A stretch of 63,983 nt of DNA, counting the filler, from Rhizaria sp. SCN 62-66 (lineage: Eukaryota), in the NCBI GenBank assembly GCA_001724265.1. It is 4 parts of 4 records of this genome, joined end to end, with 100 filler letters (N's around TTAATTAATTAA, not from the genome) between each part and the next. Parts side by side here need not be neighbours in the genome. Positions count along the whole stretch, not along the records: positions 1 to 19,692 come from MEDY01000464.1; positions 19,793 to 39,189 come from MEDY01000465.1; positions 39,290 to 58,628 come from MEDY01000466.1; positions 58,729 to 63,983 come from MEDY01000641.1. The stretch is one strand, 5' to 3'. Shown one piece after another: positions 6,784 to 59,678 of the stretch (positions are counted from its first letter, which is position 1; the number at the start of each line of letters is the position of its first letter). A model generated the notes under the pieces. It saw only the letters and a program-made list of their open reading frames with translations. It did no database searches and was not told the DNA's origin. A program made the translations under genes and the position numbers.

Positions 6784-8724
6784 ATGCCGCGCTCGCTGTG
6801 TTCCCGGTTCCTGGCCGCCGCGCTCTTTGCGGCGCTGGCCGTGCTCTTTGTTGTCGCTGCCCCCGCCGTGGCAGACGACTCAAACCACAAGTACGCCGAG
6901 AAAGACGAGGTGACGGTCTGGGTGAACCGCGTCGGGCCATACCCGAACCCGCAGGAGACGTATTCGTACTGGTCGCTGCCGCTGTGCCGACCGGACACGG
7001 GCAAACCGCTGCGGCACAAGAAGTCCTCGTTGGCCGTGCTGCTCGAGGGCGACCAGGTCTCCGACTCGGGCATCTCGGTCGCCTTCAACGTCCCGACGGC
7101 GAAGTCGCCCCTGTGCACCTTCACGCTCGACGCCGACTCGGCCGCGCAGCTGTCCAAGCTCGTCGCGCGTGAATACTGGTACCAGCTCTACGTCGACGAG
7201 CTGCCCGTGTGGGGCATGGTCGGCTCCGTCACCGACGGCGCCACGTACGTATACACGCACAAGCACTTCAGCATCGCCGCCAACGGGCCCCGCATCATCG
7301 AAGTCAACCTCACTTCGTCCGCGCCCCAGCGCATCGCACCCGGTACGTCTTACAATATTTCTCGCCAAGACAACGAGATATAGAGATAATATCCTGGAAG
7401 TATGATATAAAATCAGATTTTCTATTGACTAAACGCGTTGATTCATTTCTATTTCATCACCTCATTGAGAATAATATCCGTGATTGTTTGTACATATGCA
7501 ACAACAGGCGTGTCTCTGGCGATGACCTACTCGGTGCAGTGGTCGGCCACTGACAAGTCCTTCTCGCGCCGCTTCGACCGGTACCTGGACCTGGACTTCT
7601 TCGAGCACTACGTGCACTGGCTGGCCCTGCTCAACTCGGTCGTCATGGTGCTCTTCCTCTGCAGCGTCGTCGCGCTCATCCTCTACCGCACGCTGCGGTC
7701 CGACTTCGCGCGCCACGCGCTGTCGGAAGACAACCTCGACCTGGAAGACGTGATCGACGAGTCGGGCTGGAAGCAGGTTCACAACGACGTGCTGCGTCCG
7801 CCGCGCGCCCTCGCGCTGCTAGCTGGTCTGGTCGGCTCGGGCGCGCAGCTGCTGGCGTTGTGTCTCTTGACCGCGGCCGTGGTCGGCACCACGGGCGCGC
7901 TCTACGACGAGCGCGGCGGCATGCTCATGACTGCGCTCGCGCTCTTCTGCGTGTCGGCCGTCATCGGCGGCTTCGTCTCGGGCCGCCTCTACAAGCAGAG
8001 CTCGGACCCGCGCCGCGCAGCGGGCTGGAAAGGCGCGCTGCTCTACACAGCGACGCTGCTGCCCGCCCTGGCACTGCTGGTTCAGTCGGCGCTTAACGCA
8101 GTCGCCGTCGCCTACGGCTCGCAGGCCGCGCTGGACACCGCCACGATGCTGCGGCTGCTGGGGCTGTGGCTGGGCGTCCAGTGCCCGCTGACGCTGCTCG
8201 GCACCGTCGTGGGCCGCGCGCTCACGGCTCAGGCGCAGCAGCGGTACTCGTTTACGCTGCGGCCGATCCCGCTGCTGCCCCTGCGCTCGCAGGCATGGGT
8301 GACGGCGATGGTCGCCGCGTCGATGCCCTTTGCCGCCGTCTTCATCGAGATCCACTTCATCTTCACGTCCATCTGGTCGTACAAGTTCTACTACGTCTAC
8401 GGCTTCATGTTCGCCGTCTTCGCGGTGATGGTCGTCGTGACGCTGTGTGTGGCCGTGCTGGCAACCTACGTCACGCTCAACCGCGAGGACTGGCGCTGGC
8501 AATGGATGGCGGCCGCGATCGGGCTCTTCATGGCCGCCTACGTGTTCCTCTACGCCGTCTACTACTTCGTCATGAAGACGCGCATGACGGGCGTGCTGCA
8601 GACGTGCTACTACTTCGGCTACGTCGCGCTCTTCTGCGCGGCAGTAGGCGCGCTGACGGCCGGCGTCGCCTTCCTCGGCGCTAGGTGGTTCGTCAACAGG
8701 ATCTACCAGACCAAGACCGACTGA
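6784..8724 (+). CDS. TM9SF3: Transmembrane 9 superfamily (nonaspanin/EMP70) protein, TM9SF3-type, 591 aa; join(6784..7342,7508..8724)
   Basis: Signal peptide; NRVGPYPNPQETYSYWSLPLC; DESGWKQVHNDV; FIEIHFIFTSIWSYKFYYVYGF; EDWRWQW; C-terminal KTD (KxD/E) motif. Phase-1 GTACGT...CAG intron at 7343-7507 restores the frame. Stop is TGA. Confidence 0.95.
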
Positions 8725-9249
8725 GCTGGCCGGCAAAGTGATTGGTCAAGATGACTATAACTACGAACATAACAATGTTTATTTGAACAAGACTTGATCC
8801 CCCCTCTCGAGGTTACACTCAGGTCCAGGTCTGTTTGCTATTGAGAAAAGAGTGTGCGTTGATGATGTATATGTGATACTTGGGCCAATGCGTTTGGTTA
8901 TATTAATACAATAGGTGTTTATTGATCATATTTTCTTACTACATCGCTATACAAGTCCTTTGTTATGTCGTGATCGAGTTGTCTTAGTGCGTTTTCAGTG
9001 AATGGAAAAGAACGGTGGTTCCTAAAAAATCGACCGACGACGACAAGACTGACCGAAGGAGGCATGGAGACGACAAAGTCAGCGTGTTTTGCGAGACACA
9101 AACTTTTATTATTGGCGTGCTGAAAATATGATATGATGTAGTCGTGCGCAATGTTTTTTTGGGTCGAATGATTTCTCCAGCTCACGTTCTCTTCCCTTCT
9201 CTTGCCCACATTTTATCCCCAACTCTTCCCCTCTCTCAGTAGTGGCAGC

Positions 9250-10696
9250 ATGAAGTTTCTCTTTGTGCTTGGCGCTGTCTTCGTTGCCTGCTCGCAGGCG
9301 TACGTTGAGGACATGGTACGTCACTCAGTATTCTCTCCTCTGCGTCCGCTTTCACTTCCCGAGCTCCTATGCTCTCCGCACACAATCCCTCCGATGTTCT
9401 CTCTCGCTCACACACGCCCACTCACTTTCTCTGCATGCTGTTACTTGCAATCCTTCCTCATCGGCCTCTGTCACGTCTTGCTTTCTGTCATCCTGTTCAG
9501 ACGCCGTACCGCTCGGTGATCGGCACCCGCGGCGGCGCCCCGCGTCCCCCCGCGAGCGCCCTGGCCCGCGCCGTCCCCGCCGGCTTCCACGTCCAGGTAC
9601 GGCCCAATCCTCTCAGTCAACCAACAAAGACATCTCATGTGTGACTTCATATCGCTCTACAACGACTTCTCTGTCACAACTTAGTTTACAAAACTCAACT
9701 ATCTACCCAGATCCATTGGTCTCATTTCATACCTCACTCATCTTGTCTTGCCATCTACCCCTGCGTTTGCCCTCTTCTCACGCTCCCGCTTCGTAACATA
9801 AACACCGCGGTGTCCCTCCCTGCGCAGGTGTCGCACGCGCGCGAGGCGTACCAGAAGACTATCCCGTACAACTACGGCGCGCCGGTGCGCTCCGAGGACC
9901 TGATGGCCACCGCGCGCGCACCGCTGGTGCTGCAGCCCGAGGTTGCGTTCATGCCGATCGCCGCCTCGGCCGCACCGCCCACGGCCGACTCGCTGCCCGT
10001 TTACTCGAACGCGCCCATCCCGACCCCCGCCAAGTCCACCTTTGCCTCCTTTGCCGAGCTCGAGGCCGCGGCCGACGCCGAGGCTGAGGCCAACGCCGAC
10101 TCAGCGTCTGCGGCGACTGTGGGCAGCATGAGCGCCAGCAAGCTCGACGCCGAGATCGACACGGCCGCGGACTTCGCCGCCGAGCTGGAGATGGTGCTGG
10201 AGAACGGCGACAAGGCCGCGCTGGAGCGCGAGCAGCAGGAGCGCAACTATGCCCTGATGCGCGGCGGCAAGACCCCCGAGCAGGGTCAGGAGCAAGACGA
10301 GGAGCTCTACTCCATCCACCAGGTACGTCGGACCAATGTCTAAACATGCGCAGACATATGTCACATGTCGTGTTATGATGCTAAAATCACTCTATTCGTG
10401 TTTTTAATGCTATTTTTGTTATATTCTCCACTTTTAATCAAAAATCTCACATGTCATGCCAATATATCTATCTTTGTTTTTAACGACTATCGCAGGCCGC
10501 CTTCCTCGAGGCTGAGGCCGAGGTGGAGGTGGACGCCGAGGCCGCCGCGGCCGCGGAGATGGACGCCGAGCTCGACGCCGAGGTCGACGAGGACCTCGAC
10601 CTCGAGGCTGAGGCCGAGCACGAGGCTGACGCTGAGGCTGAGGCCGAGACTGAGGTCGACGCGGAGGCTGAGTTCGAGTCCGAGTTTGACGCGTAA
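9250..10696 (+). CDS. Secreted, highly acidic protein of unknown function, 285 aa; join(9250..9315,9501..9596,9828..10322,10496..10696)
   Basis: Signal peptide MKFLFVLGAVFVACSQA. Three phase-0 GTACG...CAG introns give one continuous frame. Strong C/G-ending codon bias. C-terminal E/D/A tail (AAFLEAEAEVEVDAE...EFESEFDA). Stop is TAA. Confidence 0.85.
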
Positions 10697-11509: not shown

Positions 11510-14015
11510 TTAGTACGCCGGGTCGTCGCGGTCGATCATGGTCCAGCGCAGCTTGTTGCGCACGTACAGGAAGGGCCCCAGCGCGGCCTCGGAGCCGGCG
11601 TGGCCGGGCTGGGCGCTGGTCTCCGCAGAGCCGTCCAGGTACCTGGAAGCGAGAACAAGGGGAAAGCAATAAATCAAGATATCCACGGCACGATATGTGA
11701 GAAAAATATTGCGAAACAATACAATGTTACAATTTTCAAGTAGATTCATGAAATTAATTTAAAAACAACTTGCTTATAGATCGACATAATCATTTAACAT
11801 CAACAACAGCCCCAGTCGCGTACCCTTGCTGGCGGTTGTCGATGGCCGAGTCCGAAGCGATGGGGACACCGTCGACGCCCACGGCCATGCCGTTGCTGGT
11901 GGTGCGGAGGCCCAGCTCCTTGCGGCGCTGCGCGAGAGCGGACGTGGAGAGGCCCGTGGCGGAGTAGGGGAAGTGCTTGATGGCGACGTAGAGCGAGCGC
12001 GCGAAGAAGTACGCAATGCCCCAGAAGAGCACCGCGGCGAAAAGCACCACGGTCATGGTGAGCATGACAAGGCGCCACTTGCGGCCTGTGGCGTCGAGCA
12101 TGACGCCCATGATTGACGGCGACAGCGCGTCGCCCAGCGCGTGCGTGAAGATGACTGCGAAGGCCAGCGCCTGCGGGGCGAGCGCGAACGGCACGGTCCA
12201 CATGATGCAGTTGTTGAGCGGCGAGAAGCAGCAGAAGAGGAACAGCTCGGCCACGGTCAGCAGCACGAAGAAGGCCGGTGCGCCGGGCAGGATAAAGGCC
12301 AGCGCGGCGGGCACGATGGCGATGGCCGTGGCCACCGTCACGAGCTTCACCGACACCAGCACCGACTCGACGCGGTCGCGGATGTTGACGGGGTTCTGCA
12401 GGTCGTTTTGCGCGCGCTCGTCGGCGGCACGGCGCTCGGCCGCGGTCAGGCGGCGGCCCGCGCGCCCGCTGGCCGTCACTGCGCGCGCGCCCGCGGGCGT
12501 GGGCGAGAGGAGGTCCACAGGCCGCGTCTCGAGGTGCGCGTCAAACAGCCCTCCGTCAACGGCTTCGCTGTTGTTAGGATTCGCTTCGCTGGCGACGAGC
12601 TTCTTGGTGGCCGAGGGGATGCCGCGCCGCGCGCGGAGGCGGTCGAGCACGACGCCGCCGAGCATGGTGCCGACGATGCCGGTGATCACAGTAACGGCGC
12701 CGAAGCCCATGCCGGCGGTCGACTTGGACAGGCCCAGCTCCTCCTTGGCGTAGTCGATGCCGAAGAAGGCCATGCCGCCCGTCACGAACGTCTGCATCGC
12801 GTAGCCCAGCGCGACAAAGTAGAAGAGCTTGTTGCCCAGGATCGCCTTGACGGCCGTGAGGAACTTGCGGGACTCGCCAGCCACGCCCGCCGCCATGCTG
12901 ACGCCGGAGCCGGAGCCGTTGGGGGCGCCGGCGGGAGAGGCGGCGCCGCCCTCCTCGACCTGGAGCGCGGCCAGCGTCTCGGGGTCGCTGCGCGCGCTGC
13001 CGGCGGCGCCGGCGGCGGCGTTGGCGCTGGCGGGGTCGGCGAACGAGAAGGGCGACTTGCCCGCAAGCGAGAAGAGCACGAAGGGGAACATGAGCACTGC
13101 CTCGGCGATGAAGATGATGCGCCAGGACCAGCGCTCGCCCGCGGGCTGCGCGCCCAGCCACACACCCGAGGCGATAAAGCCCAGCGCGTAGCCGACGGGG
13201 ATGGCCGAATAGAAGACCGAGAGCCAGAGCGACTTGCCGCCCTTGGGAGCGAACTTGTCGATGAAGGGCGGCGCGATGCACAGGAAGGACGCCTCGCCGA
13301 AGCCGGTGAGCACGCGGCCCAGCACGACGAACCAGTAGCTCGGCGCAAGGGCGCAGAGTAGTGTGGCGAGGCACCAGATAAAGAGCCCTGAGGCCATGAC
13401 GCGGAAGGGCTCGAACTTGGTCACCAGGTGCGCGAAGATTGGCGAGGCGATCATGTAGCCGACCATGAAGGCCGAGCCCAGCAGCCCGCGCTGCGCGCCG
13501 CTGACGCCACCAAAGTCGAGGCTGATGTCCTCCAGCACGCCTGAGAGCGCGCCGCGGTCGAAGTACGACAGCAGGTTGATCACGGTGTATACAACGAGCA
13601 TGCCCGCGGCAGTGAGCGGCAGCCCCTCGAGCTTGCCGCTCTTGGCGTGAGCGTCCTCCTCCTCCTCGCCGTCATCGTAGTCCTCCGCCGCCGTGGACGC
13701 GTTCAGGCTCGAGTAGCCGTCGCCTCCGGCGCTGCCGTTGAGCGAGCCGGTAGCGAGCTGCAGCGCACCGCCGTTGTCGTTGTTGCTGCCGTACTTGGCG
13801 TTGTAGGTGGCGGCGTCGTAGTAACGCTCAGGGTCGCCGGAACTGGCGCTGGCGCCGGCAAGCGCGTTGGCGCTGCTGTGGGAGTCCGCGGCGAGCAGCG
13901 AGGCGTCCATGCCCTCCAGCGCAGGCTCGCCAGCGGGCAGCGCGGGCGCGCGCGTCGTCGCCGCCGACTTGGCGGCCGCGGACGAGGCGGCTTGGCCGTG
14001 CTTTTTCGGAGGCAT
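11510..14015 (-). CDS. Spinster-family MFS transporter, 774 aa; complement(join(11510..11642,11824..14015))
   Basis: INLLSYFDRG, GLLGSAFMVGYMIASPIF, GRVLTGFGEASF, APPFIDK, WLSVFYSAIPVGYALG, HALGDALSPSIMG are Spinster-type motifs. Phase-2 GTACGC...CAG intron at 11823-11643 gives a short last exon ending in TAA. Confidence 0.92.
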
Positions 14016-14703: not shown

Positions 14704-16948
14704 ATGAACCATTCGCAGAGTCCGCCAGCACAGCCCCAGCAGCCGTCGCGTCAGTCACAATCGGCGCAGTCTGCGCTGGCCGCCGCGCTCGGCCACGGAC
14801 ACGCGTTGCACCACTCCCCGCTGCTTGTCGGGACTTCCACTGCGCCCGCGCCTGCGCCCGCGCCTGCACCTGCCTGGCCCTTCGCTGCCTCGGCCCCTGC
14901 GTTCGCATCAGCTGCAACATCATCATCATCATCGTCATCGTCCTCGTCCTCGTCGTCGGCTGATGCTGCGCAAGCGCCCGTGTCGGCGTCTTTTGCTCCG
15001 TTTGGCTCTGCGTTCCGCGCTCCTCTGCAGCAACACAACCTCACCCAGCCCTTTGGACAGCCGCAGCCACAGCCACCGACGACGCAGACGCAGTTAGGAG
15101 GCAGCTTCGGGGTTGCTTTCGGCTCGTCAGCGTTCGGGACGGCAGCCACAGCTGCTCCTGTTGCAGCGCCCGGGCTGGCGGGGGCGTCAGGCGCGTTTGG
15201 CCCCGCCTCATTTGCCCCCGCCTCATTTGCCCCCGCCTCGTTTGCCCCCGCCTCGTTTGCCCCCGCCTCGTTCGTCCCCGCTCCGTTTGCCGCGACCGGC
15301 TCTGCTCCCTTCGGCTCTGCTTTTGGCCCTGACGCTGGCGCCGGCGCTGCTTTTGGATCTGGCTCTAACACTGCTCCGTTATCGCTCTTGTCCTCGCCCG
15401 CGAAAGCAACGGCCGCGCCGACAGCTGCAGCAGTGGCACCATCGGACTCCACAACCGCTGCCGCGAACGAGGCAGCTGCTGATGATGATGGCAAGGGCGC
15501 AGGGCGGAGCGTTTTTGCGCCTGCCCCGCCCTTTGGCAGTGCAACAGCGGCAGCAACACCCGCGATTGGTGCGAAGATGACGGCTGAGTCCGAGTCTGAG
15601 CCGAGTGCTGCTCCCGGGGCTGACGACTCTAACCTTGCTACCGATGCGAAGTCTGCCGCGCTCGCCACACTCGAGGCTGCGCTGCGCTCTTCGATTGGCA
15701 CCAACGCTCCCAATTACGACATCTCGAATGCCAACGCTGATAACAACATGCGCAATGACGCTGACGATGACGAAGAGGACGGCGATAACTGTGTCACTGC
15801 AACCTCGAGCTCGAGCGCGAATGCAGGTCCTAGCGCCACTGCTGACGCTGCGACTGAAAGCGCGACTGCGACTGGGAGTGGGAGTGTGAGTGTGAGTGCG
15901 GCAGAGGCCGCGAACGCGCTCGCCCTCACGCTCGCTGCAGCCGCGGACGCCGACGCCGCCGCGCCCGCCGCCGAGGCCCGCGCCGCCGCGGCTGCCGCGG
16001 CCGCCACCGCCGCAGCCGCAGCCGCGGACGCCGCGGTGACCGTGGGCGATGCCGACGTTGCCGAAGCAATGGAACTCATGTACACGTCAGGTACGCACGA
16101 CGTATATTCCTTGATCAAACGCACGAATGCTTTGTCGTACGATATGGATACGTGTTACTCTTATATATTTGTTATTTGCAATTTCAAATCTCACAATCTC
16201 ACAATTACTCTCAATCCCCCTGTTTTGACTCGGCGATTATCCCGCTGCTGTCCGCCGTCATCGCCCCTGCGCGCCACCGCCGCGCGCAGGCGAGTTCGGC
16301 CGCTACGTGCTCGCGCTGCGCCGGCGCCTGACCGCGGACGTCGCCTTCTCGCGCCGCGCCGCCGCCGCCGCTGCCGCGCTGGCGGACCGCGACGGGCCGC
16401 AGCTCTTCTCCGCGCAGGAGCTTGTTGCCACGGTACGTGCCGCACCGTCGCATTCTCGCACTCTTGCGTTCTGGCACTCTTACGTTCTGACTGTCGGCAA
16501 CGCGTGCGCTTGCGAGCGCCGTGCTCAGTCGGAGGCGTTTTATCCTGATCATGTGCAGCTACTATGTTAAGTATTAAGTATTTGTTTGATATTTTGACCG
16601 ATATGAGACTCCTAATTGATTGCTATTGTGCTTATTCAATTACATCTCACACTTCATGCGACACCCTAAACCTGCTCTGTGTTTGTAACCTCACTTTCCC
16701 TGTATACATCTCGACTGCAGCTCGCCTGCGCCGCCCCGCCGTCCCTGGGACTCCTGCCCGAACCTGCAGGCAGCGTCCCAGCGGCCCACGACGCCCACGA
16801 CGCTGCCGTCGCGGCGGCCGCGAGTCGCGCCGCGCTGCTGCGCGCGCTGGCGGGCTCGCTTGAGCGCGCCGCGGCCGCACGCAGCGACGCGGGCTACTGG
16901 GGCGCGCTTGAGCACCGTGGCGACCGCAACAGCAACGGCCAGGCGTGA
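14704..16948 (+). CDS. FG/FA-repeat low-complexity protein, possible FG-nucleoporin (Nup62/Nsp1-like layout), 585 aa; join(14704..16090,16290..16432,16721..16948)
   Basis: N-terminal half carries many FG units (APFG, QPFG, SFG, AFG, PPFG) and a PASFA tandem array, followed by a helical-looking C-terminal region. Two GTACG...CAG introns restore the frame. Stop is TGA. Gene structure is solid; the nucleoporin identity is inference. Confidence 0.55.
15202..15276 (+). repeat. 15-bp coding tandem repeat (cccgcctcRtttgcc) x5 encoding PASFA
   Basis: Directly visible in the sequence; the last copy diverges to PASFV. Confidence 0.9.
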
Positions 16949-19175: not shown

Positions 19176-22100
19176 TCAGTCGTCACTGTCGCTGCCGCCG
19201 CCGAAGCCGCCGCCGAAAGATGCCGCGGCGGCGCCGGGGGCGCGCCTGCGGACGAGGACGACCTCGTCTAGCTCCATTTGCAGCGCCGGCTGCGCGCCGC
19301 TCAGTGCAGGCATGTCCCAGTCGGCCTTCTTGCACTTGCCCTCCGCCGCCGCCGCGGCCGCGGCGGCAGGAGACGGCTTCGCACCGCCAGCGCCAGCGGC
19401 ACCGTCGTCGTCGTCGTCGTCGTCGCTGTCGTCGTCGTCCGAGTCCTCTGCCATGCGCAGCTCGTAAAGCGCGGCGTCGAGCGCGGCGAGCGCAGGCTGC
19501 CGCTGCTGCTGCTCGTACAGCAGCAGCGCCAGCGCCACCACGTCCGCGTTGCTCATGTGCGACCACACGGTGACGGGCAGCGCGCGCGCGTGCGGAGGCA
19601 CCCACACCTGCAGGCGCCGGCCGCGGCCCGTGCCGGCCCCGGCGCCCGCCGCGCCCGCGCCGCCCGCGCCCGCGCCCGCGCCCGCCGCGGCANNNNNNNN
19701 NNNNNNNNNNNNNNNNNNNNNNNNNNNNNNNNNNNNTTAATTAATTAANNNNNNNNNNNNNNNNNNNNNNNNNNNNNNNNNNNNNNNNNNNNGCCGCCGC
19801 CGCGAGCTCGGGCTCCGGCGGCGGCGCGGGCGGCGGCAGCGGCGGCGGCGGCCGAAGCCGACAGTACCGGCTCCTGCACCTGCGCCTTAACGCCCAGCGC
19901 GGCCAGCCCGCCCACCAGCGCCAGCATCGGCGGCGCGGCGGTCACGGCGCCCGCAGTCGCGCTCGCAGAGGCAGACGCGGCGCTCGAGCCGGAGCCGGGA
20001 GCGGGGCTCCCCGCGGTGAGCGCGTGGCCCGCGCCGGGGCCCGCGAGCGTGGCCAGCGGCACGGTGACGGCGTCGAGCGCGAAAGGCCGCACGCGCGCGT
20101 GGCCCTTGGCGACGGCGGCGGCGAGGCGCTTGCGCTCGAGGTCGAGCCCGCGCAGCGCGGCGGCGGCGAGCACGTGCGCGTCGCCCAGGCGGCGGGGGGC
20201 CTCCTGGCTGCACACGGCCGCGAGCAGCTGCGCCGCCGCGGCGGAAGCCGCAAGCGGCGACACCGTGCAGCTGACGGGCGGGAAGCCGGCATAGCCGCCG
20301 CTGGTGTAGTGGCTACCGCTGCTGTGAGCCGCGGAGAGCGTGACGTCGTTGGTGAGCGCAACAGCGCGGAGCAGGCGGCGCAGCGCGGTCACAGTCCGGG
20401 CCTTGGCTGCAGCGGCGTCGCCGTCCGCTGCGAACGCAGAAGCCGAGCCAGCAGCGTCGGTGCTGAGCGAAACAGCACATTCAGCGATTGTGCCCGTCGC
20501 ATGGGTCGCAGCGGCAGTGGCGAGCTCGAGCGGACACAGCACCGCTGCGCGCACGAGAGCCGCGTAGACGGCGTCGCTCACGCTGTCGCCCGCACCGGGC
20601 GCAGCACCGCTCGCCGGGGCAGGAGCGGCGACAGCGGCGGTCGGCGCAGCGCTGGCTGCGTCGGCCACCGGGGTCTGCGTCGGCTGCGGTGCACTCAAGT
20701 GCGCGTGCAGAGGCGCAGGGGACCACGGCGAGGCGGGCGTGGTCAGCGCGAGCGCGAATGCAAGGAGTGGATTGCGGGACGCCGCGAGGTGCAGCGCCGC
20801 GTCGACGCTGAGCACAGCGCCGCCCCCGGTGTTGCCGCTGCCGCTGACAGCGTCACCGTTCGCCCCAGCAACCATCGCCGTCGTGGTGGGGGCGACTGCG
20901 GTCTTGCGGGCAGCGGCCGCCTTGCCCTTGCTGCCCGCTTTCGCGCTGCCAGTGGCGGCCGCGATGCTGCTGCTGATGCTGCTGATGTTGTTGTTATTGG
21001 CGGGATTGGCGGCGGCGGCGGCAGCTGCGTCAGAGTCGGACTCGGCGTCGGACTCCGAGTCCGAGTCGGAAACCAACAGGCCTGTGGCCGCCGCGGCCGC
21101 CGCGAAGGCAGCTGAGATAGCGTTGCGCTTGACGCGTTGCGCAGCGGCCTCGGCTGTCTCAACGGGCTCAGCTACAGCAACAGCGTTCTAGACATCGGTC
21201 TCAGCGGCTGACGCAGCAGAGGCTGACAAAGCAGTCGCAGTCGCGGGGACGTCGACGTCAACCATCGCAGCGTCGGCTGTATCTGCGCCAGCGGCAACGT
21301 CGTCGCCGTGGCTACCACTGCCGCTGCGAGCGTCCGCGGCCATCGCGGCCTCGGGCGGCGGCGAGGTGGAAGGCGTAGTCACCTCCGAGTCCGCCATCGC
21401 GACACCTCCAGCGCCGGAAATGGAGAGGTCCGCGCCCGCCGCAGCGCTGCCGTCGACGCTGTTGCTGCGGCTCATGCCCTCGGTCAGCAGATCGTCCCCG
21501 CCGGCAGCACCCGCGCTGGTACTGCTGGAGCCAGCGCCGGCGCCTGCAGCAGTCGCGGTCCCGCTGGCGCTGGCGCCGGCAGCAGTCTTGGTAGCCTTGG
21601 CGCCCTTGCGCGCGCCGGCCGCGCCTGCCCCGGCCGCGCCGCCGCTGCCGCTGGCGCGCGCGGCCTGCGCCTGCGCCTGCGCTTGTGCCTGCGCCTGTGC
21701 GCGCGCCAGAATCAGCGCCGCAGCCTCGGCCTCGGCGGCGGCGGCGGCGGCGGCGGGCGCGGGGGAGGCCGCGGCCGCGGCCGCAGCGGCAGCGGCAGCG
21801 TCTGACGCCAACAGCGAGGCAGAGACAAGCGCCGCGGCGGCTGCGGCGGACGCGGCGGAGGCAGCGGCGCCGGAGCCGGCGTGTTGTTGCAACTGGAGTT
21901 GCAGCTGGAGCTGCTGCTGGTGCTGCGAGGGCAGCGACGGCCCCACCGCCGGTGCCTGGCCCTGAGACAGCAGCAGGAGCAGCGGCGGCAGCGACGGCGG
22001 CGGCGGGGGCAGCCACAGCGCGTCGCTGAAGCCGCTGCTCGTGCCCATGTGACTGTGGGTCGAGTGACCGTGAGTAGGCTGCCCGGAGGCGCTGCTGCTG

Positions 22101-39415: not shown

Positions 39416-40750
39416 GAGGTGAAGAAGGCCGTTGAGGAGATCAAGAAGGACCTCGCCACGCCCGTCACTGACTCCGCGGCCCCCAAGTCGACCTCTGCGG
39501 TGCTCGATGACCTCAAGAAGGACCTCGCCAAGCCCGCCGACGCCGTCAAGCCCGCGCCCGCCCCCGGCAACGACACCGCGGCCGCGACCGCGGCTGCCGT
39601 GGCCTCCGCCGACCCCGTCAAGGCCGCCGAGGCCGCGGCGGGCGAGCTGGCGACCCAGGCGCTCAAGATGAAGCTCGAGGCGCAGGCCAAGGCGAGCGGC
39701 GCCCCGCCCCCGGTCGTGGTCGCTCCCACCAACGTGCCGACGACGTCCGAGATCGCTAAGGTGCTGGCGAAGAGCAAGCCGCTCGAGGGCGGCGAGTCTG
39801 CGCCCGCCAGCGGCACGGCCGGCTCCGTCACCTCGGTCGAGAACGCCATGCCCGACACGGTCGTCAAGGAGATCAAGAAGGAGGCCACCGAGTCCGTGGA
39901 GGTGGCCAAGCTCAAGGAGGACCTCAAGACGCCCGCGCCCGAGCCCGCGGCCGTGGACATGGTCGTCAACGCGCTCGAGGCCGTCAAGGCCTCCAACCCC
40001 GACGCCGCCGCCGCCATCGTCGGCGCGCCCGCCCCCGCTGAGAACCCCGCTGCCGCCGCCGCCGCTGTCGCCGGTGCTGCCGTCCCTATTGCTGTTGACG
40101 CCGCCGTCCCCGTCGCCGGCAACTCCACCGCCGCCGTCCCCGCCGCCGCCGCCCCCGCCGCCGCCGCCCCCGTCGCCGTCCCCGTCGTGCCCGCCGACGG
40201 CGCTGTGGTGATCGGCAACGGCACTGTCGCCGACGCCGGCAACTCGACCGGCAACGCGACCGGGATCGTCCCCCCCACTGCGGACATCACCGATGCGATT
40301 AAGTCCGGCAACCTGACCGTGCCTATCACCGTGACTCCCGGCAGCGCGACGCCCGCGCCGCAGCCCGTCGTGGTGACTGCGCCGCGCAGCAAGCCCGACG
40401 GCTCCGACTACACCTCGCCCTTCATGCACCCGCGCCAGGTACGCCGCCCTCTTTCTTTATGTGAAACAATTCAAATGTTATGAATGTAATTTTTTGACAG
40501 TATTAATTGCGTTTGAATAGTTGTATCATCATGCACTCTTATCTCTAATTTGTTTACTGTTCTTTTTCTCCTCTTACAGGCCCGTACTCTGCCCGACTAC
40601 GCGCAGGCCCAGATCGCGAGCCCGGCCTTCCAGCAGCCTGCCAACCCCGTGGCACCGGCCGCGCTGACCGCGGTGACCATCGCCGCCGGCAAGGCCGCCG
40701 CCAAGGCGCCCGCCACCGAGGCCGCCCCCGTCGCGCCATCTGTCATCTAA
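39290..40750 (+). CDS. Ala/Val/Pro/Lys-rich repetitive protein, 5'-truncated by gap; join(<39290..40438,40580..40750)
   Basis: Open frame from the gap edge with strongly C/G-biased codons. Phase-0 GTACGC...CAG intron at 40439-40579. Several N-x-T sequons (GNST, GNGT, GNAT, GNLT). Stop is TAA. Confidence 0.8.
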
Positions 40751-41486: not shown

Positions 41487-44400
41487 TCAGAAAGCGAACT
41501 CGAGCTTGTCCTTACGCCCCTCGGCGTCGAGCGGCGTCCAGCCTACCACAGCGCCTTCGCGCACGTGCTGGATAGACGCGCGCGCCAAACTGCGGCGCCG
41601 GCGGTTGGCCACGATCGAGACCGCAATCACGTGCTTGTCCAAGCGAGCACTGTCGTCACTGGGGCTGCTCTCCGTATCAGTCGAGATATTACCAGTCGCA
41701 GAGTTATTATCAGTTGCAGCCCCCGCGCTCGCGCGACTGACGGCCTTGACGAACGCCCCATCCCTGTGCTTGATTGCGCCGAGCGCGCGCTGCACGTCCC
41801 CACGGCCGACGACCGAGGCCGCGATGGACGCCGAGAGCTGTTTCATGCGGCGGCCATAGCTGCGGAGCTCGGCCAGCGAGCCCTCGTCGATGCCCACGGT
41901 CAGCGACACCACGAACATCGGGCCCGCGCCGTGACTGCTGCCATTGCTGCTCTCGCTGCCCGCCGCAGGGGCAAAGTCGCCAGTTGGCGGGGCTGCTGTG
42001 CGCGCCGCAGTGTTGACCATGGGCGGGAACGAGACGATCCAGGGCCCGTCGAACGGGACGCCCTCGACAGGCGCCGCGGCCTCCGTGACGAGGCTCGCGC
42101 TGCTCAGGTCAACGCTCGTCCCTTCGGGCGCGTTCGCGGCCTGTGACAGGAGGCTCTTGAGGCGCTGCTGCCGCTGCAGGTGCTGCGTGTTGACAGCGCT
42201 CGCGTGCTCGCAGCGCGCGCCCAGCGACGCGCAGAGGGCGCGCAGCACGCGCGCGTCGTGCTCCTCTTCGCTCAGCCCCGCGCGCACGGCGCCGCGGTCC
42301 TACGAGATAGCAAGTAATGATGTGATGCAACAAATGTAGAATTATGAGAAAGTGAGAGATATCGATGTCAGCTGAGGTTGTAGATAAGATAAACATTGGA
42401 CAAGGACAATTGTTGCGTAGTAGTCAGTTTCAGTCTCATGACGGGTTTGTGGGTTTGTAGCGTACCTGGTCGGCGAGGTCGCGCAGCAGCCAGTCGAGTC
42501 GGCGCAGCAGAGGCTCCGGGTCCCCAGCCCGCAGCGCGGCCGCTACGGCCCGCGTGGCCTGGCCGTCGCGCGCGCGCAGCCCCAGGTCGCGGACCGTGGC
42601 GGCGAGCAGCGGGCCCTGCAGCGCGCTGCGCAGCTCCGTGTTGGGCAGCGACAGGTACAGCACGTCCACGGGCGGCTGCGCGGCGCTCGCGCGGGGCCCG
42701 CGGTACGAGACGCCCGAGCGCGGGCGTCCGCGCGGGGCCGTGGCCAGCGCCGCGGCCACGGCGTCGGGCGCCGCTGGCAGCAGCCCGCTGCCGGTGAGCG
42801 CGAGAACACCCGAGTAGAACAGCTGCACTGCCGTTGCAGCGCTCAGAGAGTCGCCACCCGCGTCGACGTTATGGACCGGGGCGCTGATGTTGCTATTGTC
42901 ATTAAGCAGGAGCCCGGGCCCAACGGTCGCCGAGATGTACGCCGCCGAGGCCGCCGACGCCGCGGTATCAGGCTCGTCGTCGCCCTGCTTGCCCGCACAC
43001 ACGCCACTCGCGGGCACAGCGGCCGTGGTGCGCACAAGGTCCGCGGGCGCGACGGGCGTGCGCTGCCAGAGCGCGCGCAGCTGCGGCAGCGGCAGCTCGG
43101 CGAGGCGCGGCAGCGCGGCCCGCGCAGCGACGGCGCGCGCCCACACAGGCGCAAAGCTGCCGCTCACTAGCGCTGCAAACACCGACGGGTAGCTCGCCGT
43201 GGGCGCCACGCGCAGCGGCGCGAACGTGCCCTGGACCGCGCCCGCGCCTGCGTTTGCGCTCGCAGCGGGGATGCCGCTCACGGAGGCCTGCTTCTGCCCC
43301 CGCGATCGCGGCGGCGGGGCCAGCCTGGCCGTGAGCACGGCGGCGTCGGGCAGCGCGGGGTAACGGAAGCCACCGCAGCGGTCCATGAGCACAACCGCGG
43401 CCTCGACCGGGGTGAGACGCAGCTGTTCCGCGAGCCTGCGCCACGGCGCGCCGGGGGCGCGGTCCGCGGGCGTCGCGCCGTGCGGGTCCGCCAGCGCCGC
43501 GGCGTCGGCCGCCGACACGCCCAGCGCGGCCGCAGACAGCGGGCTGAAGGTCGCGTCCACGAAGCCTCGCTGGGACGGCTTTGCACCGGCACTCACACTG
43601 GCGTTGGTGCTCGCGGTGACCTCGCTGCTGGCGGCGAACAGGGGCACGAGAGCGGGGCCGGCACGCTGCACGCCGACGACCACGGCGTGCGACAGCGCAA
43701 ACTGCTGGTGTTTCTGCTGCGCGCGCGCAGTAGCGCCGGGGCCGGACTCGCGCAGCGGCAGCGCGGCGGCCGCGCGGAGGCCGCGGAGGAAGGACGCGAC
43801 AAGGAACGCGGCCGCCTCGTGCTCCCGCGCCACACCCGCGCTCACCGCGCCAGCAATCGCTCCCACGCCTCTCGCGCGCGAGCGGTGGCACGTCGAATCA
43901 GAGCCGGAGACGGCGTCGGCGAACAGCATCGCGTCCGCCTCAGTCTCAGCGTCGGACCCGAGGAACCCGCGGCCGACCGCGCCGCCGCTGCCGCCAACAC
44001 AGTCGCCCCAATCGCCGCTGCAGTGCTCCTGCTCCATCTGCTCCATGAGGGGCACGAGCAGCGGCGCGTCGTAGTTGTCCACCAGCACGGCGACGGGCCT
44101 GCCCCCGCCGAAGCGTGCGGCGGCCGCGACGAGGCGCGTGACGCGGCCGGCCAGGTCGCGGCGGCGCGGCGTCAGCCCCTCGCCCCACAGCGCGCTCACA
44201 GCGCCGTTCACGCCGCCCACCACGCTGTCCAACGCCAGGGCATCACGAGGAGATGCGGCACCCGCGCTGGCGCCGTAGAGGGCCTCATAGTGCGCGAGCT
44301 GGCCGTCGAGCAACGCAAAGGCCGCTGCGGCGCGTGAGGCGGCCTCGGCGCGGCCCGTCGCAGACTCGCAGCCGGACTGTGACGCCCACTCGCGGGCAGC

Positions 44401-47193
44401 GGCCACGCCCGCGGCCACGGACGCGGGCTCGGCAGCGGCCGCGGCGCAGAACACTGCGCTCTCCCCGTGCTGCTGGCGCTGCTGTTGCTGTTGATTGAGA
44501 GAGTTCTGCGCAGAGTAGCCGACGCCCAGCCCGAGCACCGCGCCGCTGCCGATCGCGGCGGCGGCGTCGCTGCCGCCGGATGAGTGTTGCGTCGCCGCGA
44601 CGAACGGATCGTCCGCGCGGCCCAGCGCGGCGAAGTCGAACCGCAGCACGACGCGCTCGTGCCACGGCCACTGCACGTCGCCCGCGCTGCTGCTGCTGTT
44701 GTTGTTCGAGACATCCGCGCCCATGCTCACGTCCATGGCGTTGTTGTTGCTGTCGACTGCCAGGCCGCGGAAGAGCTCCCTGCGGCCCGCGAGCAGCGCC
44801 TCTGCGAGCGACAGCAGCGTCGACTTGCCAAACCCGGGCGGGCGGTGCACGACGCAGAGCGGGGCGGCCGTGAGCAGGCGCGCCGCGGCGAGCGACTTAT
44901 CCACCACGGCGCAGCGCGCCGCGCGCAGGGCGGACCAGTGGCGCGAGGCGGGCACGGCAGCCAACGGCAGGCAGGGACCCGCGCGGCGCGGCGGGCGCGG
45001 GAAGGCCGTCGACGGGAACGACGTTGAGAGGAACAGCGGCATCGCGAGCCCACTCATGCTCGCACTCGTGGGTACGGGTACTGGGGGAGCACGCGCCGCC
45101 ATGGGCGACGACGCCGCGGACACTGGCCTCAAGTTGACCGCAGCTGCCGCGGCGGCTGCAGCGGCGGCGGCGGCGGCGGCGGCGGTGGAGAGGTGCGCGT
45201 GCGCTGCAAAGTCGGCGACTGTGTCTCGCTCGGCCGCGGGCACGGCGCTCAGCGGTGGCACGCACTGAGGCGGCGCGCTGGCACATGGACTGGCAACGGC
45301 ACTGACGCGGCTGCCGTCCGCCGCAGAGGCGGCTTGCGCACCACGCGCAGCAGAGTGGCAGTGGCTGGAGGAGTGACCGTGGGCCGCGGAGAGCGCGGCA
45401 GAGGGGAAACGCTGGCTGAGTGCGAGCTGCGACGGGTGCACGCCGCCGGTGGAGCTCGGAGTGAAGCGGCCGCTGTGGACGCTGCTGCCATTGAATTTAC
45501 CAGCCGCAGCCGCAGAGGGAACAGCGGCCGCAGTGGCGGCAGCGGCCGCGGGCCCACGCCACGGCAGACGCAGCTGCACTGGTTCACCGGCAGTCGCACT
45601 CGGATTCGCATCCTGATTGTGGCCCAGCGAGTCACTCGAAGCCGTCTGAGCAGTCTTTGCGCCATTGCCAGTAGCGCCAGTGACAGTTACCGTGGGCTTG
45701 ACTGTGAGGAGCGGCGGGGCGCCGCGCGGCGCCGCGGGCAGCGCCGGCTGCGTGATCGCGGCCACGGCCGGCGGCAGCAGCGACAGCGCCGGGGACAGCA
45801 GTGACGCGAGCGCCAGGGCGTAGCTCGCGCTCGCCTCGGCGAGCTACGCACCGGCGCTCGCGCCTGCCTCGGTGGCCTCGGCAGCAGCCGTGGCGGTCGC
45901 CACGCGAGCATTGTCCTTGCTCTTGGTTTTGAATTTGCTCGCAGGGTCTCTGCTTGCAGCGCTAAGGGACGTAGTCGCGGACTGATCTTGCTGTTGCTGC
46001 TGCTGCTGTTGCTGCTGTTGAATCGCGAGACCCTTAGACTGTGTCCCCTTTGACGGAGCACCCCTAGACTTCCTCAACGTCGCAGCGCGCTTAGCTTGCA
46101 AGCGCTACTCGCACGGCACACACACTACATTTGAACTCGTCACCGGCGCAGGCCCAGACTCTCCGCGCGCACTGCTCGTGTCCGTGACCGTGTCAGTGAC
46201 CGCGAGCGCGTCAATGACCGTGAGCGCGGCCTGTGCGGCGTGCCAGAGCGGCCGCGGCAGGTACCCCAGCGCCGTGGGTCGGCGGAACTGCAGCTCCGCG
46301 CCGCAGCAGGCGCACGCCGCCACGGCCTCAGTGCGCGGGCCCTCCGCCGCGCCTAGTGCGGCCAGGGCGGGGGACGCGGAGGAGTGGGAGGGCTGTGGCG
46401 AGGGCTGTGACGCGGTTGGCGCGGCTGCGGTGGTAACGGCTTCATGCTCCGCAGCTTGTGCGGTGACGAGTTGCGGCGCGGCACGGTTGCGCTGTTTACG
46501 CGAGGGAAAAGTCACCGGGATCATGTCGCCGTCTTCATCGTCCTGGAGCATCTCCAGGGGACTGCGGGCAGACCTCGCGCCGAAACCGACATTGTGACTA
46601 AGATCGCTGTTGGCGTCGCTGTCAGAGCGCGCGCCAGTGTGTTGCGCGAGCAGCGCGGCCCACTGCGCGCCCTGCGTCTGCTGCTGCACGTGTTGCTGTG
46701 TCTGCGCTTGCGCGGCCTGCTGCTGCTCCCGCAGCAGCCGCGACTATGCCCTGGGCATCGAGAAGAAGCCGGTCGCAATCAGCTTGGCGTTGCGGCCCGC
46801 GTCGGCGGCCAGCAGCCGCGCCTGCAGGTCCGAGTACGCCTCGGGTACAAACCGCGAGAAGTCGCTCGCAGAAGCCGAGTCTGCTGTCCGTTGCTGTAGC
46901 TGTTGCTGCTGATCAGGAGGCCCGCTGCCGCTGCGGGGAGCGGGATCGTTGGCCTTGGAGCCACGAAGCGGCGTTGCGCGAGAGGACGATGACGCGTGCC
47001 TGTACGGCGAGCACACAACAGGACACAACTGCGTCGCCGATGCAGGACCGCAGATGTTGCTGCTCACTGTCACAGTCAGCGAGGGCCGGAGTGAGAGTGC
47101 GCTGACACAGGGGCGCGCGGGACCCAACAGGCGCGCGGAAGGCGCATGTGCGTGCGGGTAAGCGTGCGCCAGTGCAATGAGGCGAGATGCCAT
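41487..47193 (-). CDS. 1846-codon protein: presequence-like N-terminus + YqeH/NOA1-type Zn-finger + bacterial-type AAA-ATPase-like domain + degenerate PD-(D/E)XK-like C-terminus; three in-frame TAGs; complement(join(41487..42299,42466..47193))
   Basis: ORFs 47322-46744, 46689-46105, 46101-45844 and 45765-42436 share one frame and are separated only by TAG. Motifs: CACCGAELQ...P...GYLP...VCVPC; VVDKS; HRPPGFGKST; LFRGLAV; VVLRFDF; VLVDNYDAPL; LFYSGVLAL; LSLPNTELR; ALGAIKHR. Phase-0 GTACGC...TAG intron at 42465-42300. Stop is TGA. Confidence 0.75.
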
Positions 47194-52451: not shown

Positions 52452-55400
52452 ATGTCTGATTCCGCTTTTGATCAGACGATCTCGACCGAGATCAACGAAC
52501 ATCTCGCGGTACAAGATCTCGTCGCGGACCTAAAGGAATGCGCCACCGAGCTCGCCGCGCTCCACGCCTCCGGTGCCGCGCCCGACCAGTCTGCAGTGTC
52601 TGCACTCAAGGCGCAGCAACTATCTCAGCTTATGCAGCTGCGTTCACACATGATGCTGCTGACCGCGCGCGGCGAGGCCAGCGACGGCGTCAAGGAGCAG
52701 CTGTCAGCGAAGCGCCAGGCTGTCGAAGCGCACCAGCTCAAGCTGCAGAGCCTACTGTACGAGAAGACTCACTTTCTCAAGGAGGCCGAGAAGCAGCGCG
52801 GGCTCAGCGACATCTCCGCCCTGCGTGAGGCCGTCGACGTCGAGCCTGTGACCGACCCCGCGCAAGTCGCGGCCCTCCGCGCGCAGGCCGCCGCCGCTGC
52901 CGCAGCCGCAGCCGCAGCCGCCACTAGCTCCAGCTCCTCCGTGGGCGCACAGCATGGGCCTCAGCGCGCTGCTGCGGCCCCCGTGGTTATGGACGACTCA
53001 ACATCTACTGCAGCTGCAGAGCCGGTTGCTGGTGAGGTTGATGGCGAGGCAGAGATGGACGCAGAGGAGGCGAAGCAGCACCACTTCGACTTGCTCCAGC
53101 TCCAGCACGAGCTCAAGGCCCGCAAACAGTACGTATACGATCACATGGTCACCTATCAAAGCAAGACTCAGAGATTCTGTCGCAATTACCTTTTATTTTT
53201 GTTTATTGTGTCTCTATCCCTTCCGACTCTTATCACACGACATATCTTGCTTATGTCCACTTGCACAGACTTATCTCGGAGGGCAAGCGCCTCGTGTCTC
53301 GCCGCGCCACCGCGCGCCGCCATCTCGAGGGTGCCCAGGACTCCCTCGCGGGGCTCATCAAACGCGCCACGACTTTTGTCCAGGCCGTGTCCACCCTGCT
53401 GCCCGCCCTCACTGGCCCCGCCGGTGGCCGCACCGTCGCGTCCTCCGCTGCCGCCACTACTGGCGCTGGTTCGGTGGACTCCGCCGCGGACGCTGATGTC
53501 GTGTTGGCGGCCGCGGGGGGGGCGCGCGCGCCGCCACAGCCGTTGGCCGCCGCCGCGGCGCTGCTGCCCGCGCCGCTGTACACGCTCTACGCAGGGCTGC
53601 TGTCGGCGCAGCGTGCGGCCGCGGGGACGCGCCGGGCCGTGCTGCGCGCCGCGCGCTGCTTCGTCGTCCCCACGGCCGCCGTCGCGCCCGCGCTTGCGCC
53701 CGCGGAGGTCGCCGCCGAGGCCGCGGCCGCCGAGGCCGTCGCCGCCGCGGCCGCCGCGGACAGGGCGCGCCGCGACGCCGCCGCCGCCCGTAGCGCCGCG
53801 AGCGCTGCGGGCGAGAGCGGCGGACTGCACGACGAGGACGTCTACACGCCGCCACCCGCGCCGCTGGCCCCGCCCGCGCCCGCGGCGGTGTCGCTGGTGG
53901 TGACCGTGAGCGCGGCCGCCGAGCCTGACACGCCGCTCGTGCCCCGCAACGGCCCCTTCGGCAGCAGCAGCAGTCTCCACAGCGGCGGCGCTGCTACCAG
54001 CGGCGCCGTGATGGACGACGACGGTGATGAGCTCGAGGACGCGGGCGCCGAGGACGAGAGCGGGGTTGCCGGCGGCGTGATTGCGGGCACGCTCGCGCTG
54101 CACTTCGCCTATTGCGCGGCGACCGACAGCGTCCACGCACGCCTGCTGCTGCCCCCAGCGAGCGCCGCCGCGAGCGCGTCATCGAATGCGTCTGTGAATA
54201 GTCCGTCTGATCTCTCTCTCGACGCAGATGCGCCTGACGCGCCCGCGGCGAGCTGCCTGTGGGCCCACGCTTCCTCGGGCCCCGGCGGCGCCGCCACCCT
54301 CATGTCCGCGCTCGCCGCGGCCGCCGCGGAGCTGCCCGCCGCCGCGGCGCCGTGGCTCGCTGCGCTGCCCGCGCCCTGGGCCTTCCCCGCTGCGCCGCCC
54401 GCCGCCGCCGCAGCCGTTGCGGCTGGGGCCAGCGCCGCGGCGGTGCCGGTGGCGGCGCCGGCGCCGCTGCTGCAGTGCCGCGCTTCGGCCGCCGCGGACG
54501 CGCGCGTGCTCGCCTGCTTATACCACAACGACACGGGCCTCACGCGGCCCGACGGGGCGCCCCTCGTCGCTCACACTAGCGTCGCCACACAGCCTGCGAG
54601 CGCTGCGGCGGCTGCGCTAGCTGCGGCGGCGACGGAGGAGGGCTGCGACGTGCGCTGGCGCGTGTGCGGCCGGCCGTACCGCTGGCTGCAGTCGCTGTGC
54701 GGCGCCCCCGCGCTGCTCGCGCCGGCGCCCTTCGCCGACTCCGCCGCGCACGCAGCCTCCGCGGCCTCCGCGAGCGCGGGCGGCGCTGGGCTGAGCGGGT
54801 TGCGCGCGCGGTTCGCGGCGTGCGTGCGCGCGTGCCAGGGCCTGAACCTCGCCACCGCGCCCGCGGCCGACACTGCGGGGCTGCTGCAGCTGCCGCCGGC
54901 GCCGCCGCGTCGCATCAGCAAGAGCACAGGCAACAAGAGCGACAAGACCCTGGCGCTGCCGTCCCTGCTGCGGCTGCCGGGCCCCGCGCCCCCGGCGGCC
55001 CCGCTCGCCCTTTCGGCCGACCTGTTCCTGCCCCTCGCCGAGTCCGCCGCCGAGAGCGGCCCCGACGCTAGCGCCGGCGCGGGCGCGGGCGCGACGTCGG
55101 ACGCGGTGGCGGCACTGAGCGCGGCCCGGGTGAGTGCGGCCGACGCGCTGCACCGCGCGGCGGCGCGCGCGCTGTGCCGCGACCGGCTCTGCGCGGGGCT
55201 GCGCGCGCGCACCAGCGCCAGCGCCAGCACCACGGGCGACGTCGTCTACACTGCGCGCGGCAGCAGCCACAGCCATATCCACAGCAACAGCGGCAGCAGT
55301 GCGGCCGCTGCTGCTGACGACGCAGCGACGGTTCGCGTGGTCGCGTCTTCGTTGGCACCGCTCTCCGCGTCCGCGCTCGCAGCGCTGTCTTCCGCAGCCA

Positions 55401-58628: not shown

Positions 58629-58728
58629 NNNNNNNNNNNNNNNNNNNNNNNNNNNNNNNNNNNNNNNNNNNNTTAATTAATTAANNNNNNNNNNNNNNNN
58701 NNNNNNNNNNNNNNNNNNNNNNNNNNNN
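58629..58728. other. Artificial assembly gap spacer (44 N + TTAATTAATTAA + 44 N)
   Basis: Same 100-nt structure as the other two spacers. Confidence 0.98.
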
Positions 58729-59678
58729 GTGAGCTGCTGGGGGACGGGGGCCTGGTACTCGCAAGCGGGCTTCTCGCAGACGAGCTCGCACTTGGGGCGG
58801 GGGCACATGAGGGGCTTGCGGCACTTCCAGTCGCAGTTGGTGGCCTCGCAAAGAGGAGCGCACTTGGGCTGGGGAGCAATGCAGGCAGTGTGGCAGACAG
58901 GGGGAGAGCAGACGGTCTCGCACTTGGGGCAGTCATCCTTCTCGCAAAGGGACTTCGGGCAGCGGACGGAGCAAGCGGGCTTCTCGCAGTGAACGTCGCA
59001 CTTGGGGCAGGGGAGCTCCTCGCACTGCATCTGGCACTTAGGGCGGGCGCAGATGGGGTGGCAGACGGCCGGGCAAGCCGGGTCGTCGCACTGCCACTTG
59101 CACACAGGGTTGCAACCCTGGACCTGTAGTTGAGAAAAAGTGTGTAAGAGAAGAGTAGAAAAGGGAGTGAGGAAGTGTTTGATGGCATGAGAAGAGGGTG
59201 GTGAAGCTGCTAAGGTCAAGGAGACAGGGCGATTCTCTCAAGCCTTGATGTGCTTCACAAACCAATGTCAATGGGATGACGTTGATTTTTAAAGAGTCTT
59301 AAGGCTGGGGAGATTCCATTAGTTGGGTCGAGGGCTCCCATTTGTGGGTTTTCCTCGCTCAATGTAGGATGGGTAAGAGGGCCAGAGGGCCAGGGAGAGG
59401 ACCCCAGTCGAGGCGACCAAGAACCAAACAAAGCCTTCAGAAGATGCATTAAAGCATCGAAGGGCAAGTGTCATTGATTTTTGGAAAGCCCCAAGCAATG
59501 AAAAAACTAACAAGAGTATCCGAACATCATATTTGGGTCTGGAACACGCCAGTAAGAGGGGAGCAAAGTGAGCATGACGAGAGGAGTGGTGCTCCTTTGG
59601 ACGAAATGAAAATCAACGTACCTCGGTGGCAAAGGTCATTGCGGCGAAGAGAGCCAAGATAAAGAGGATAACCTTCAT
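58729..59678 (-). CDS. Secreted Cys-rich protein with CxxxC/CxxxxC periodicity, 3'-truncated by gap; complement(join(<58729..59123,59622..59678))
   Basis: Exon 1 encodes signal peptide MKVILFILALFAAMTFATE. Phase-0 GTACGT...CAG intron at 59621-59124. Exon 2 has 27 Cys in about 120 residues (CNPVCKWQCDDPACPAVCHPIC...). Confidence 0.85.

Follow-up and report, generated by a model that had tools for sequence, protein, structure and literature searches.

A strong, not fixed, GTACGT 5' splice site under canonical U1 and U6 in a likely sainouroid rhizarian

Introduction

In this report, we examine the 5' splice sites (donors) of Rhizaria sp. SCN 62-66 (GCA_001724265.1), in a stretch of 63,983 nucleotides (nt), termed here the window, and in further sequence of the same genome. 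We find that the consensus donor of its ordinary GT-AG introns is AG/GTACGT (exon/intron), and that this consensus is strong, not fixed: 89 of 120 confident introns (74%), drawn from about 1 Mb, start with GTACG. A preliminary description of the window had reported an invariant GTACG in its 16 reconstructed introns and a fixed C at position +4 (+4C). Over the larger set the invariance is not borne out, as other donor types occur, and what stands of the second claim is a strong preference for +4C (0.83 of the 120 introns), while its fixation does not. The small nuclear RNAs (snRNAs) that pair with these sites keep canonical pairing sequences, so that the preference calls for another kind of explanation, which we weigh below together with an unusual use of the UAG codon and a lead towards trans-splicing.

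Donor frequencies

The sequence analysed comprises 664 kb (the window and evenly chosen tiles of the genome) and 338 kb of other loci, which partly overlap it. The source assembly measures 34.9 Mb in 714 contigs, and the window is made of four contigs joined by N spacers at 19693, 39190 and 58629. The gene finder was blind to motifs, being given only GT and AG without any further donor or acceptor motif, and a filter then kept the calls that break the frame, are AT-rich and have coding flanks. This retained 75 of 161 calls, to which 45 more were added to reach the 120 introns, most of which are predictions. The unfiltered blind calls (GTACG in 64 of 281) were set aside because they are swamped by false in-frame introns, many of them created to skip TAG. 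Within the set of 120, the motif-blind calls place GTACG at 77 donors, which is a lower bound, and motif learning from a flat matrix places it at 89 (95% interval 65-82%). The other donors are GTATG (10), GTCCG (4), GTAAG (4), GTGCG (3), GTAGG (2) and 8 singles, some of them doubtful. In the corresponding matrix, +3A reaches 0.89, +4C 0.83, +5G 0.96 and +6T 0.59, with A at 5% and U at 9% as alternatives at +4, and the donor information ends at +6.

A homology test gave an estimate that is independent of the motif, since candidate junctions were scored there against protein profiles, with a margin of at least 6 bits required. This test dropped 22 of 40 exon pairs, 21 for a margin below 6 bits (7 of these being best as GTACG) and one as an in-frame insert; the 18 clear introns that it left carry GTACG (16), GTCCG (1) and GTATG (1). 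The gene of the release factor eRF1 alone has three introns with three donor types, GTCCGT, GTACGC and GTATGT, and once they are included, GTACG is found at 17 of 21 homology-anchored junctions, a few of which are shared with the 120-intron set. GTGAG and GTAAG are enriched at drops in GC content, mostly at TGA or TAA gene ends or in exonic sequence, so that no hidden class of GTRAG donors was found. As for intron density, 664 kb hold between 75 confident and 188 predicted introns per roughly 121 gene ends; the introns of the genome are thus counted in thousands, at a density that is low, not yeast-like, and on the order of one per gene.

In the window itself, the 16 introns look real (Table 1). 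GTACG is read at 16 of 16 of their donors, followed at +6 by T in 9, C in 4 and G in 3, and 15 of the 16 were placed exactly by the motif-blind gene finder, which put the donor of 53129 at 53133. The word occurs 89 times on both strands of the window, 16 of these being donors, and it is found at only 5 of the 664 other GT dinucleotides located up to 60 nt from the donors, so its presence at the donors is not due to chance. RNA contigs from three sets were aligned to positions 1-19690: X2 and X3, which represent one sample, and X1, which comes from a second study. An automatic label had marked the X2 and X3 sets as probably DNA; since they lack GT-AG introns that the DNA-like run X4 retains (unspliced across 8202-9834), they were treated as transcripts. 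RNA joints cover at least 4 of the 8 donors in this region (9316, 9597, 10323 and 17580), the 10323 intron being joined in the second study too; among the joints listed, none concerns 7343, 11823, 16091 or 16433, and the intron at 16433 is left unspliced in one X1 contig. Removal of GT...AG ends from RNA is thus attested by 4 RNA joints, along with the 21 homology-anchored junctions. The caution of the preliminary description that its search might have become biased towards the motif was well placed: 16 of 16 at a true rate of 0.74 has p=0.008, which fits such a bias.

Branch site and exon context

The 120 introns measure 114-553 nt (median 174 nt), and their acceptors show a pyrimidine tract rich in C and T. 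No word is more enriched than CTCAC in the interval 35-70 nt from the intron 3' end; 41 of 120 introns have it with its A at 35-62 nt from this end, whereas shuffling gives a mean of 4.8 and a maximum of 12. CTCAC, whose enrichment lies about 49 nt from the 3' end, is likely to be the branch site, with a shift from A to C at branch -1. The exon side of the donor varies with its intron side, since the exon ends with AG at 15 of 53 GTACGT donors versus 46 of 67 for all others (Fisher p=1.8e-5). This trade-off between exon AG and +6T matches the two-class U5/U6 pattern described in the available text of PMC11732430. Intron bodies contain 24% C and 38% T, so local composition cannot yield +4C. No U12-type donor (RTATCCTT) was seen in the 120 introns, and U6atac was not found, which is a weak negative.

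Splicing RNAs and proteins

Compensatory changes in U1 or U6 had been suggested as the cause of +4C, and this is refuted by the snRNAs themselves. The U1 pairing sequence, ACUUACCU, is canonical and was found at a single locus in model and pattern searches that left the bases at the pairing site free; this U1 scores 47.9 bits in Rfam, below the cut-off of 69.5, yet aligns over its full length. The pattern search with free bases revealed no variant U1. The U6 box is the canonical ACAGAGA, with one exact U6 core in the equivalent search and two further matches with one mismatch, and the U2 branch-pairing sequence is the canonical GUAGUA. The U6 gene (L001, C54) adjoins a tRNA-like sequence at which ARAGORN makes no call.

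Loss of METTL16, the N6-methyladenosine (m6A) methyltransferase of U6, or of SNRNP27K was a further idea to check, and both genes are present. SNRNP27K is intact, and a LUC7 gene was also found. In METTL16 (L005, G000 C75), the DIGTG, NPPF and domain-end motifs still follow one another in order; the gene carries long low-complexity insertions inside the methyltransferase fold and two in-frame TAGs. It has Ser at human Arg82, a residue important to the enzyme, and also at Lys47. Its last exon encodes 293 residues, and the methyltransferase domain ends at the 249th of these; only 44 residues remain, which leaves no room for a KA-1 domain. Its GC3 (GC content at third codon positions) is 0.57, versus 0.89 for eRF1. 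Since TAG is read through, we dismissed the idea that this METTL16 is a pseudogene. In Schizosaccharomyces pombe, the enzyme without KA-1 works at about 2% efficiency and does not rescue splicing, according to the available text of PMC12371086. The zinc finger of U1C (L243, C179) is divergent, with Thr at Leu13, Asn at His15 and Pro at Lys29; in yeast, L13F in U1C alters U1 binding (PMC5779234, part seen). A second zf-U1 gene (L242, C144) has three apparent introns, all of which start with GTACGT.

What could favour C at +4

Since the snRNA pairing sites are standard, recognition of +4 likely no longer involves Watson-Crick pairing: +4C mismatches U1 position 5 and U6 A43, as the branch -1 C mismatches U2. 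The U2 position facing branch -1 is a pseudouridine. So is the U1 position facing +4 (PMC10581693, in the text available). C would thus be favoured at the two spots, +4 of the donor and -1 of the branch, at which the usual A lies opposite a U in U1 or in U2. We suggest that a given donor would depend on one of two contacts, that of +5G/+6U with the U6 ACAGA box or that of the exon AG with U5 loop 1 and U1. METTL16 without KA-1 would methylate U6 poorly, so that +4A would be disfavoured, and the diverged U1C (Thr at Leu13, Pro at Lys29), together with the branch-binding protein, would favour C over U. That weak U6 methylation removes +4A and that diverged commitment-complex proteins choose C is an explanation that we put forward tentatively, judging it to fall a little short of an even chance. 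Its extension to a third state of splicing, beside +4A and the +4U of yeasts, in which C is read at +4 and branch -1 through proteins while U6 loses its m6A, is possible, if on balance unlikely.

Several points weigh against this explanation. In the accessible parts of PMC10581693 and PMC11732430, it is +4U and not +4C that is reported to gain when m6A is lost, and U is scarce here; altered m6A therefore cannot be the whole cause of +4C. METTL16 may be fully active, judging from the order of its core motifs and from the intact target sequence in U6. Met141 of SNRNP27K, which supports +4A elsewhere, is kept. The lineage is long-branched, so the changes in U1C and METTL16 may be general divergence. 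CTCAC is a statistical motif and only a candidate branch point, and U5 snRNA gave no match among the 48 of 683 candidates that were scored.

Conversely, U6 could be methylated normally, with m6A penalising +4U and a relaxed U1 pairing leaving +4A unrewarded, so that C is what is left over. The presence of both METTL16 and SNRNP27K suits this idea, as do the destabilised m6A:U pairs (PMC11732430, as far as available) and the 9% of U at +4. The same source also has m6A:A pairs favoured and Met141 stabilising +4A, yet +4A is down to 5% here, and the CTCAC of the branch site is left unexplained, which makes normal methylation rather unlikely as the answer. GC-biased mutation or gene conversion could also have filled a weakly selected +4 with C. 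Other +4C lineages (Thecamonas, Mamiellales, Mastigamoeba) are GC-rich, and the sampled tiles of this genome are too, at 62% GC with high GC3. Against this, GC-richness applies to exons while introns are AT-rich, C makes up 83% of +4 but only 36-38% of +7/+8, and +3 has kept its A (0.89) rather than turning to G. We thus see GC bias as a possible contributor that is insufficient alone, and its being the explanation as improbable.

Two further accounts fare worse. A compensated U1 (ACGUAC, as in Mastigamoeba) or U6 (ACGGA) pairing with +4C might have escaped detection, given the Mastigamoeba precedent, an assembly in 714 contigs and the missing U5, but the free-base searches returned one canonical U1 locus and one exact U6 core, and we consider this very unlikely. 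The CpG formed by +4 and +5 might instead be kept as a mark for DNA methylation or nucleosomes, or the introns might be copies of one mobile element. Every GTACG donor contains this CpG, the introns tend to be about as long as one nucleosome repeat (median 174 nt) and there is one C5-methyltransferase gene; against this, CG shows neither periodicity nor a peak at donors, no information extends past +6, and no 24-mer ending in GTACG is common to different introns. This leaves the idea with hardly any plausibility.

Comparison with known splice systems

A tree of GRP94 (56 rows, quick search) groups the organism with Guttulinopsis vulgaris (Shimodaira-Hasegawa-like approximate likelihood ratio test, SH-aLRT, 100), both being long-branched. 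From this, the organism likely belongs to Sainouroidea (Rhizaria), a placement that is not settled because it comes from a single gene, a quick search and long branches. The sequencing runs that contain it come from activated sludge and wastewater, and a metagenome scan for DNA of relatives returned only one identical contig (L173) and distant eukaryotes. The literature that we could cover, which leaves out most subscription journals, yielded no description of sainouroid splice signals.

The combination of +4C with an unchanged U1 is already known elsewhere, and what we describe is another form of that pattern. According to the text available from Roy and Bowser (bioRxiv 10.1101/2022.06.08.495308), Thecamonas trahens and Mamiellales have +4C with an unchanged U1 (ACUUAC), as here, where a majority of +4C goes with a canonical U1. 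These lineages are described as massively intron-reduced; here, genes have on the order of one intron each, and the donors still fall into two classes. Mamiellales prefer GYGCGY, whereas +3 is A in GTACGT. Mastigamoeba balamuthi, which has GUGCGC donors and a compensated U1 (ACGUAC) in the same source, likewise combines +4C with a genome that is not poor in introns; its U1 is compensated and ours is not. The genome thus does not belong with the snRNA-compensated donors of Entamoeba and Mastigamoeba, its U1 5' end being unchanged. Saccharomycotina have +4U with invariant U1 and U6, which the text available from Parker et al. 2023 (PMC10581693) links to the loss of METTL16. They share with this genome a pyrimidine at +4 and an unchanged U1 and U6, but in them A gave way to U with METTL16 and SNRNP27K lost, whereas here C prevails with both genes present.

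UAG as a sense codon

UAG is, with high confidence, read as a sense codon in this genome. Coding continues in frame past 20 of 42 TAGs, and past none of the 73 TAAs or 82 TGAs; gene ends comprise 77 TGA, 73 TAA and 4 TAG, and beyond 3 of these 4 TAGs the sequence remains coding. The codon is very rare, with 37 TAGs among 164,362 predicted codons. There is a single tRNA(CUA) gene with a short variable arm (C84, L110:1489-1561, minus), which aligns best and without gaps to tRNA-Glu(CUC) (score 21, next 9.5, tRNA-Gln -5.5 and -14), within a comparison limited to the tRNAs fetched, a subset of types in which tRNA-Glu was found among Rfam matches. Pfam score sums over 6 TAG sites are 389.4 for E, 388.0 for K, 387.8 for Q, 380.1 for Y and 377.4 for L; on such profiles Leu and Tyr are excluded, and Glu, Lys and Gln barely separated. 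In 30 TAG-bearing stretches scanned with Pfam, no TAG lies inside a domain. Leu, the reading in the rhizarian exLh, is disfavoured, as it trails by 12 bits and the tRNA has a short variable arm. Pointing towards Gln, a TAG in a kinase falls in a column with Q in 17 of 50 and E in 3, and Q in the closest relative, a ubiquitin-like copy has TAG where its paralogs have Q, and several TAGs lie within poly-Q runs. Overall, we lean towards Glu as the meaning of UAG.

The only eRF1 gene found carries a TAG of its own, at human position 107 in the N domain (G000 C63, L150:1594-1596, minus). A second assembly record, L173, is identical and may not be an independent sample. Homologs have Glu (108 of 119) or Asp (11 of 119) in this column, and the closest relative, 84% identical, has Val. 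The protein also has T32S, where 118 of 119 homologs keep Thr, and T58K, common to the closest relative. PMC5304391 (part seen) describes a contact between Thr32 and the G of UAG. By analogy with bacterial release factor 2, the in-frame UAG in eRF1 might act as a feedback switch, an idea that we regard as more unlikely than likely by a wide measure; a single TAG among Glu codons could be chance. An eRF1 feedback circuit reportedly exists in plants (PMC5397192). Our literature search returned no switch by an internal UAG in eRF1.

Reassignments of UAG only have been described in exLh (Leu), Iotanema and some ciliates (Gln) and Scotinosphaera (Ser), and one ciliate code has UAA as Lys and UAG as Glu, in the consulted portions of PMC5304391 and PMC11687900. 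Neither our literature searches nor the available code list of PMC11687900 contained UAG as Glu with UAA as a stop. The present code resembles the UAG-only codes in having UAG as sense and UAA as stop, and exLh is likewise a sainouroid; it is unlike these codes in that Leu is disfavoured, the tRNA(CUA) is nearest to tRNA-Glu, and UAG is very rare, with one inside eRF1.

A lead towards trans-splicing

Of 165 predicted starts, 43 are preceded within 80 nt by an acceptor-like element, made of a pyrimidine tract and YAG, often with CTCAC. The corresponding counts are 4 and 10 of 165 at positions farther upstream, 1 of 165 on the antisense strand and 10 of 240 behind stop codons. GTACG is present 80-400 nt upstream of 45 of 55 internal acceptors, but of only 2 of these 43. 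In the window, one such element lies 11 nt before an ATG, in the stretch 9181-9253 (Table 1); no GTACG occurs between 7343 and 9300 on the + strand, and at 9239 RNA contig 17 of X3 carries 22 unplaced 5' letters. This is like Paulinella, a cercozoan in which the available text of PMC6053224 has a pyrimidine tract and AG before starts with no cis donor. No shared leader or spliced-leader RNA gene was found in the sequence fetched. Spliced-leader trans-splicing of many mRNAs seems somewhat more likely than not, and introns of 5' untranslated regions that are long or have weak donors may still explain the donor-less acceptors.

Features of the window and other loci

Table 1. Introns, candidate splice sites and in-frame TAG codons in the window
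Position	Strand	Feature	Evidence
2591..2735	-	Candidate non-GTACG intron (exon GAG, donor GTCCGT), outside the earlier list	Predicted only
7343..7507	+	GTACGT intron in TM9SF/EMP70 gene	Blind hidden Markov model (HMM); EMP70 both sides; no RNA joint among those listed
9181..9239	+	Donor-less acceptor (CTCAC, pyrimidine tract, CAG), candidate trans-splice site	
9316..9500	+	GTACGT intron	RNA joint X2/X3; blind HMM
9597..9827	+	GTACGG intron, CTCAC 48 nt from 3' end	RNA joint X2/X3
10323..10495	+	GTACGT intron, CTCAC 47 nt from 3' end	RNA joint X1, X2, X3
11643..11823	-	GTACGC intron in MFS transporter gene	Predicted
16091..16289	+	GTACGC intron	Predicted
16433..16720	+	GTACGT intron	Predicted; one X1 contig unspliced
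17580..17934	+	GTACGT intron	RNA joint X2
21188..21190	-	In-frame TAG within long coding exon	
28307..28481	+	GTACGG intron	Predicted
32523..32712	+	GTACGT intron, acceptor uncertain	Same donor in two runs, acceptors differ
34268..34407	-	GTACGT intron	Predicted
36935..37104	-	GTACGG intron	Predicted
40439..40579	+	GTACGC intron	Predicted
42300..42465	-	GTACGC intron	Predicted
45844..45846	-	In-frame TAG, first of three in one exon	
46105..46107	-	In-frame TAG, same exon as 45844..45846	
46744..46746	-	In-frame TAG, same exon as 45844..45846	
53129..53268	+	GTACGT intron in THOC5-like gene	Predicted; blind run placed donor 4 nt later
59124..59621	-	GTACGT intron, very short first exon	Predicted

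The genes of the window include those of TLC, TM9SF, MFS, FHA, THOC5-like and THH1/TOM1 domain proteins. Elsewhere, an 18S ribosomal RNA gene (L069:1501-5945; G000 C706) is AT-rich and divergent, with four Rfam group I introns and a further insertion, and the stretch before its first intron may hold a candidate homing-endonuclease gene; this 18S gene may be mis-binned. Divergent mono-ubiquitin genes (L007, L008, L011, L012, L014, L009) start with MSMQIF and end with GG and three residues; among them, L009, which carries a TAG, joins a ubiquitin-like copy to a C-terminal stretch unrelated to it. No tandem polyubiquitin junction was seen. The C5 DNA methyltransferase is a single match (G000 C660:59223-59915), and the observed/expected ratio of CG is 1.2, with no depletion.

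Significance

Why some lineages drop GTAAGT under a constant U1 is an open question, and the METTL16 model covers only switches from A to U. A genome with 83% +4C, in which both factors are present and METTL16 is eroded, offers a direct test of this model. If true, UAG as Glu with UAA as a stop would be a new code and the second change of UAG within Sainouroidea. That the third splice state, this code, the UAG feedback switch in eRF1 and widespread trans-splicing all hold jointly is a reading that we consider doubtful. The rules for donors, branch sites and code will in any case be required to annotate any sainouroid genome.

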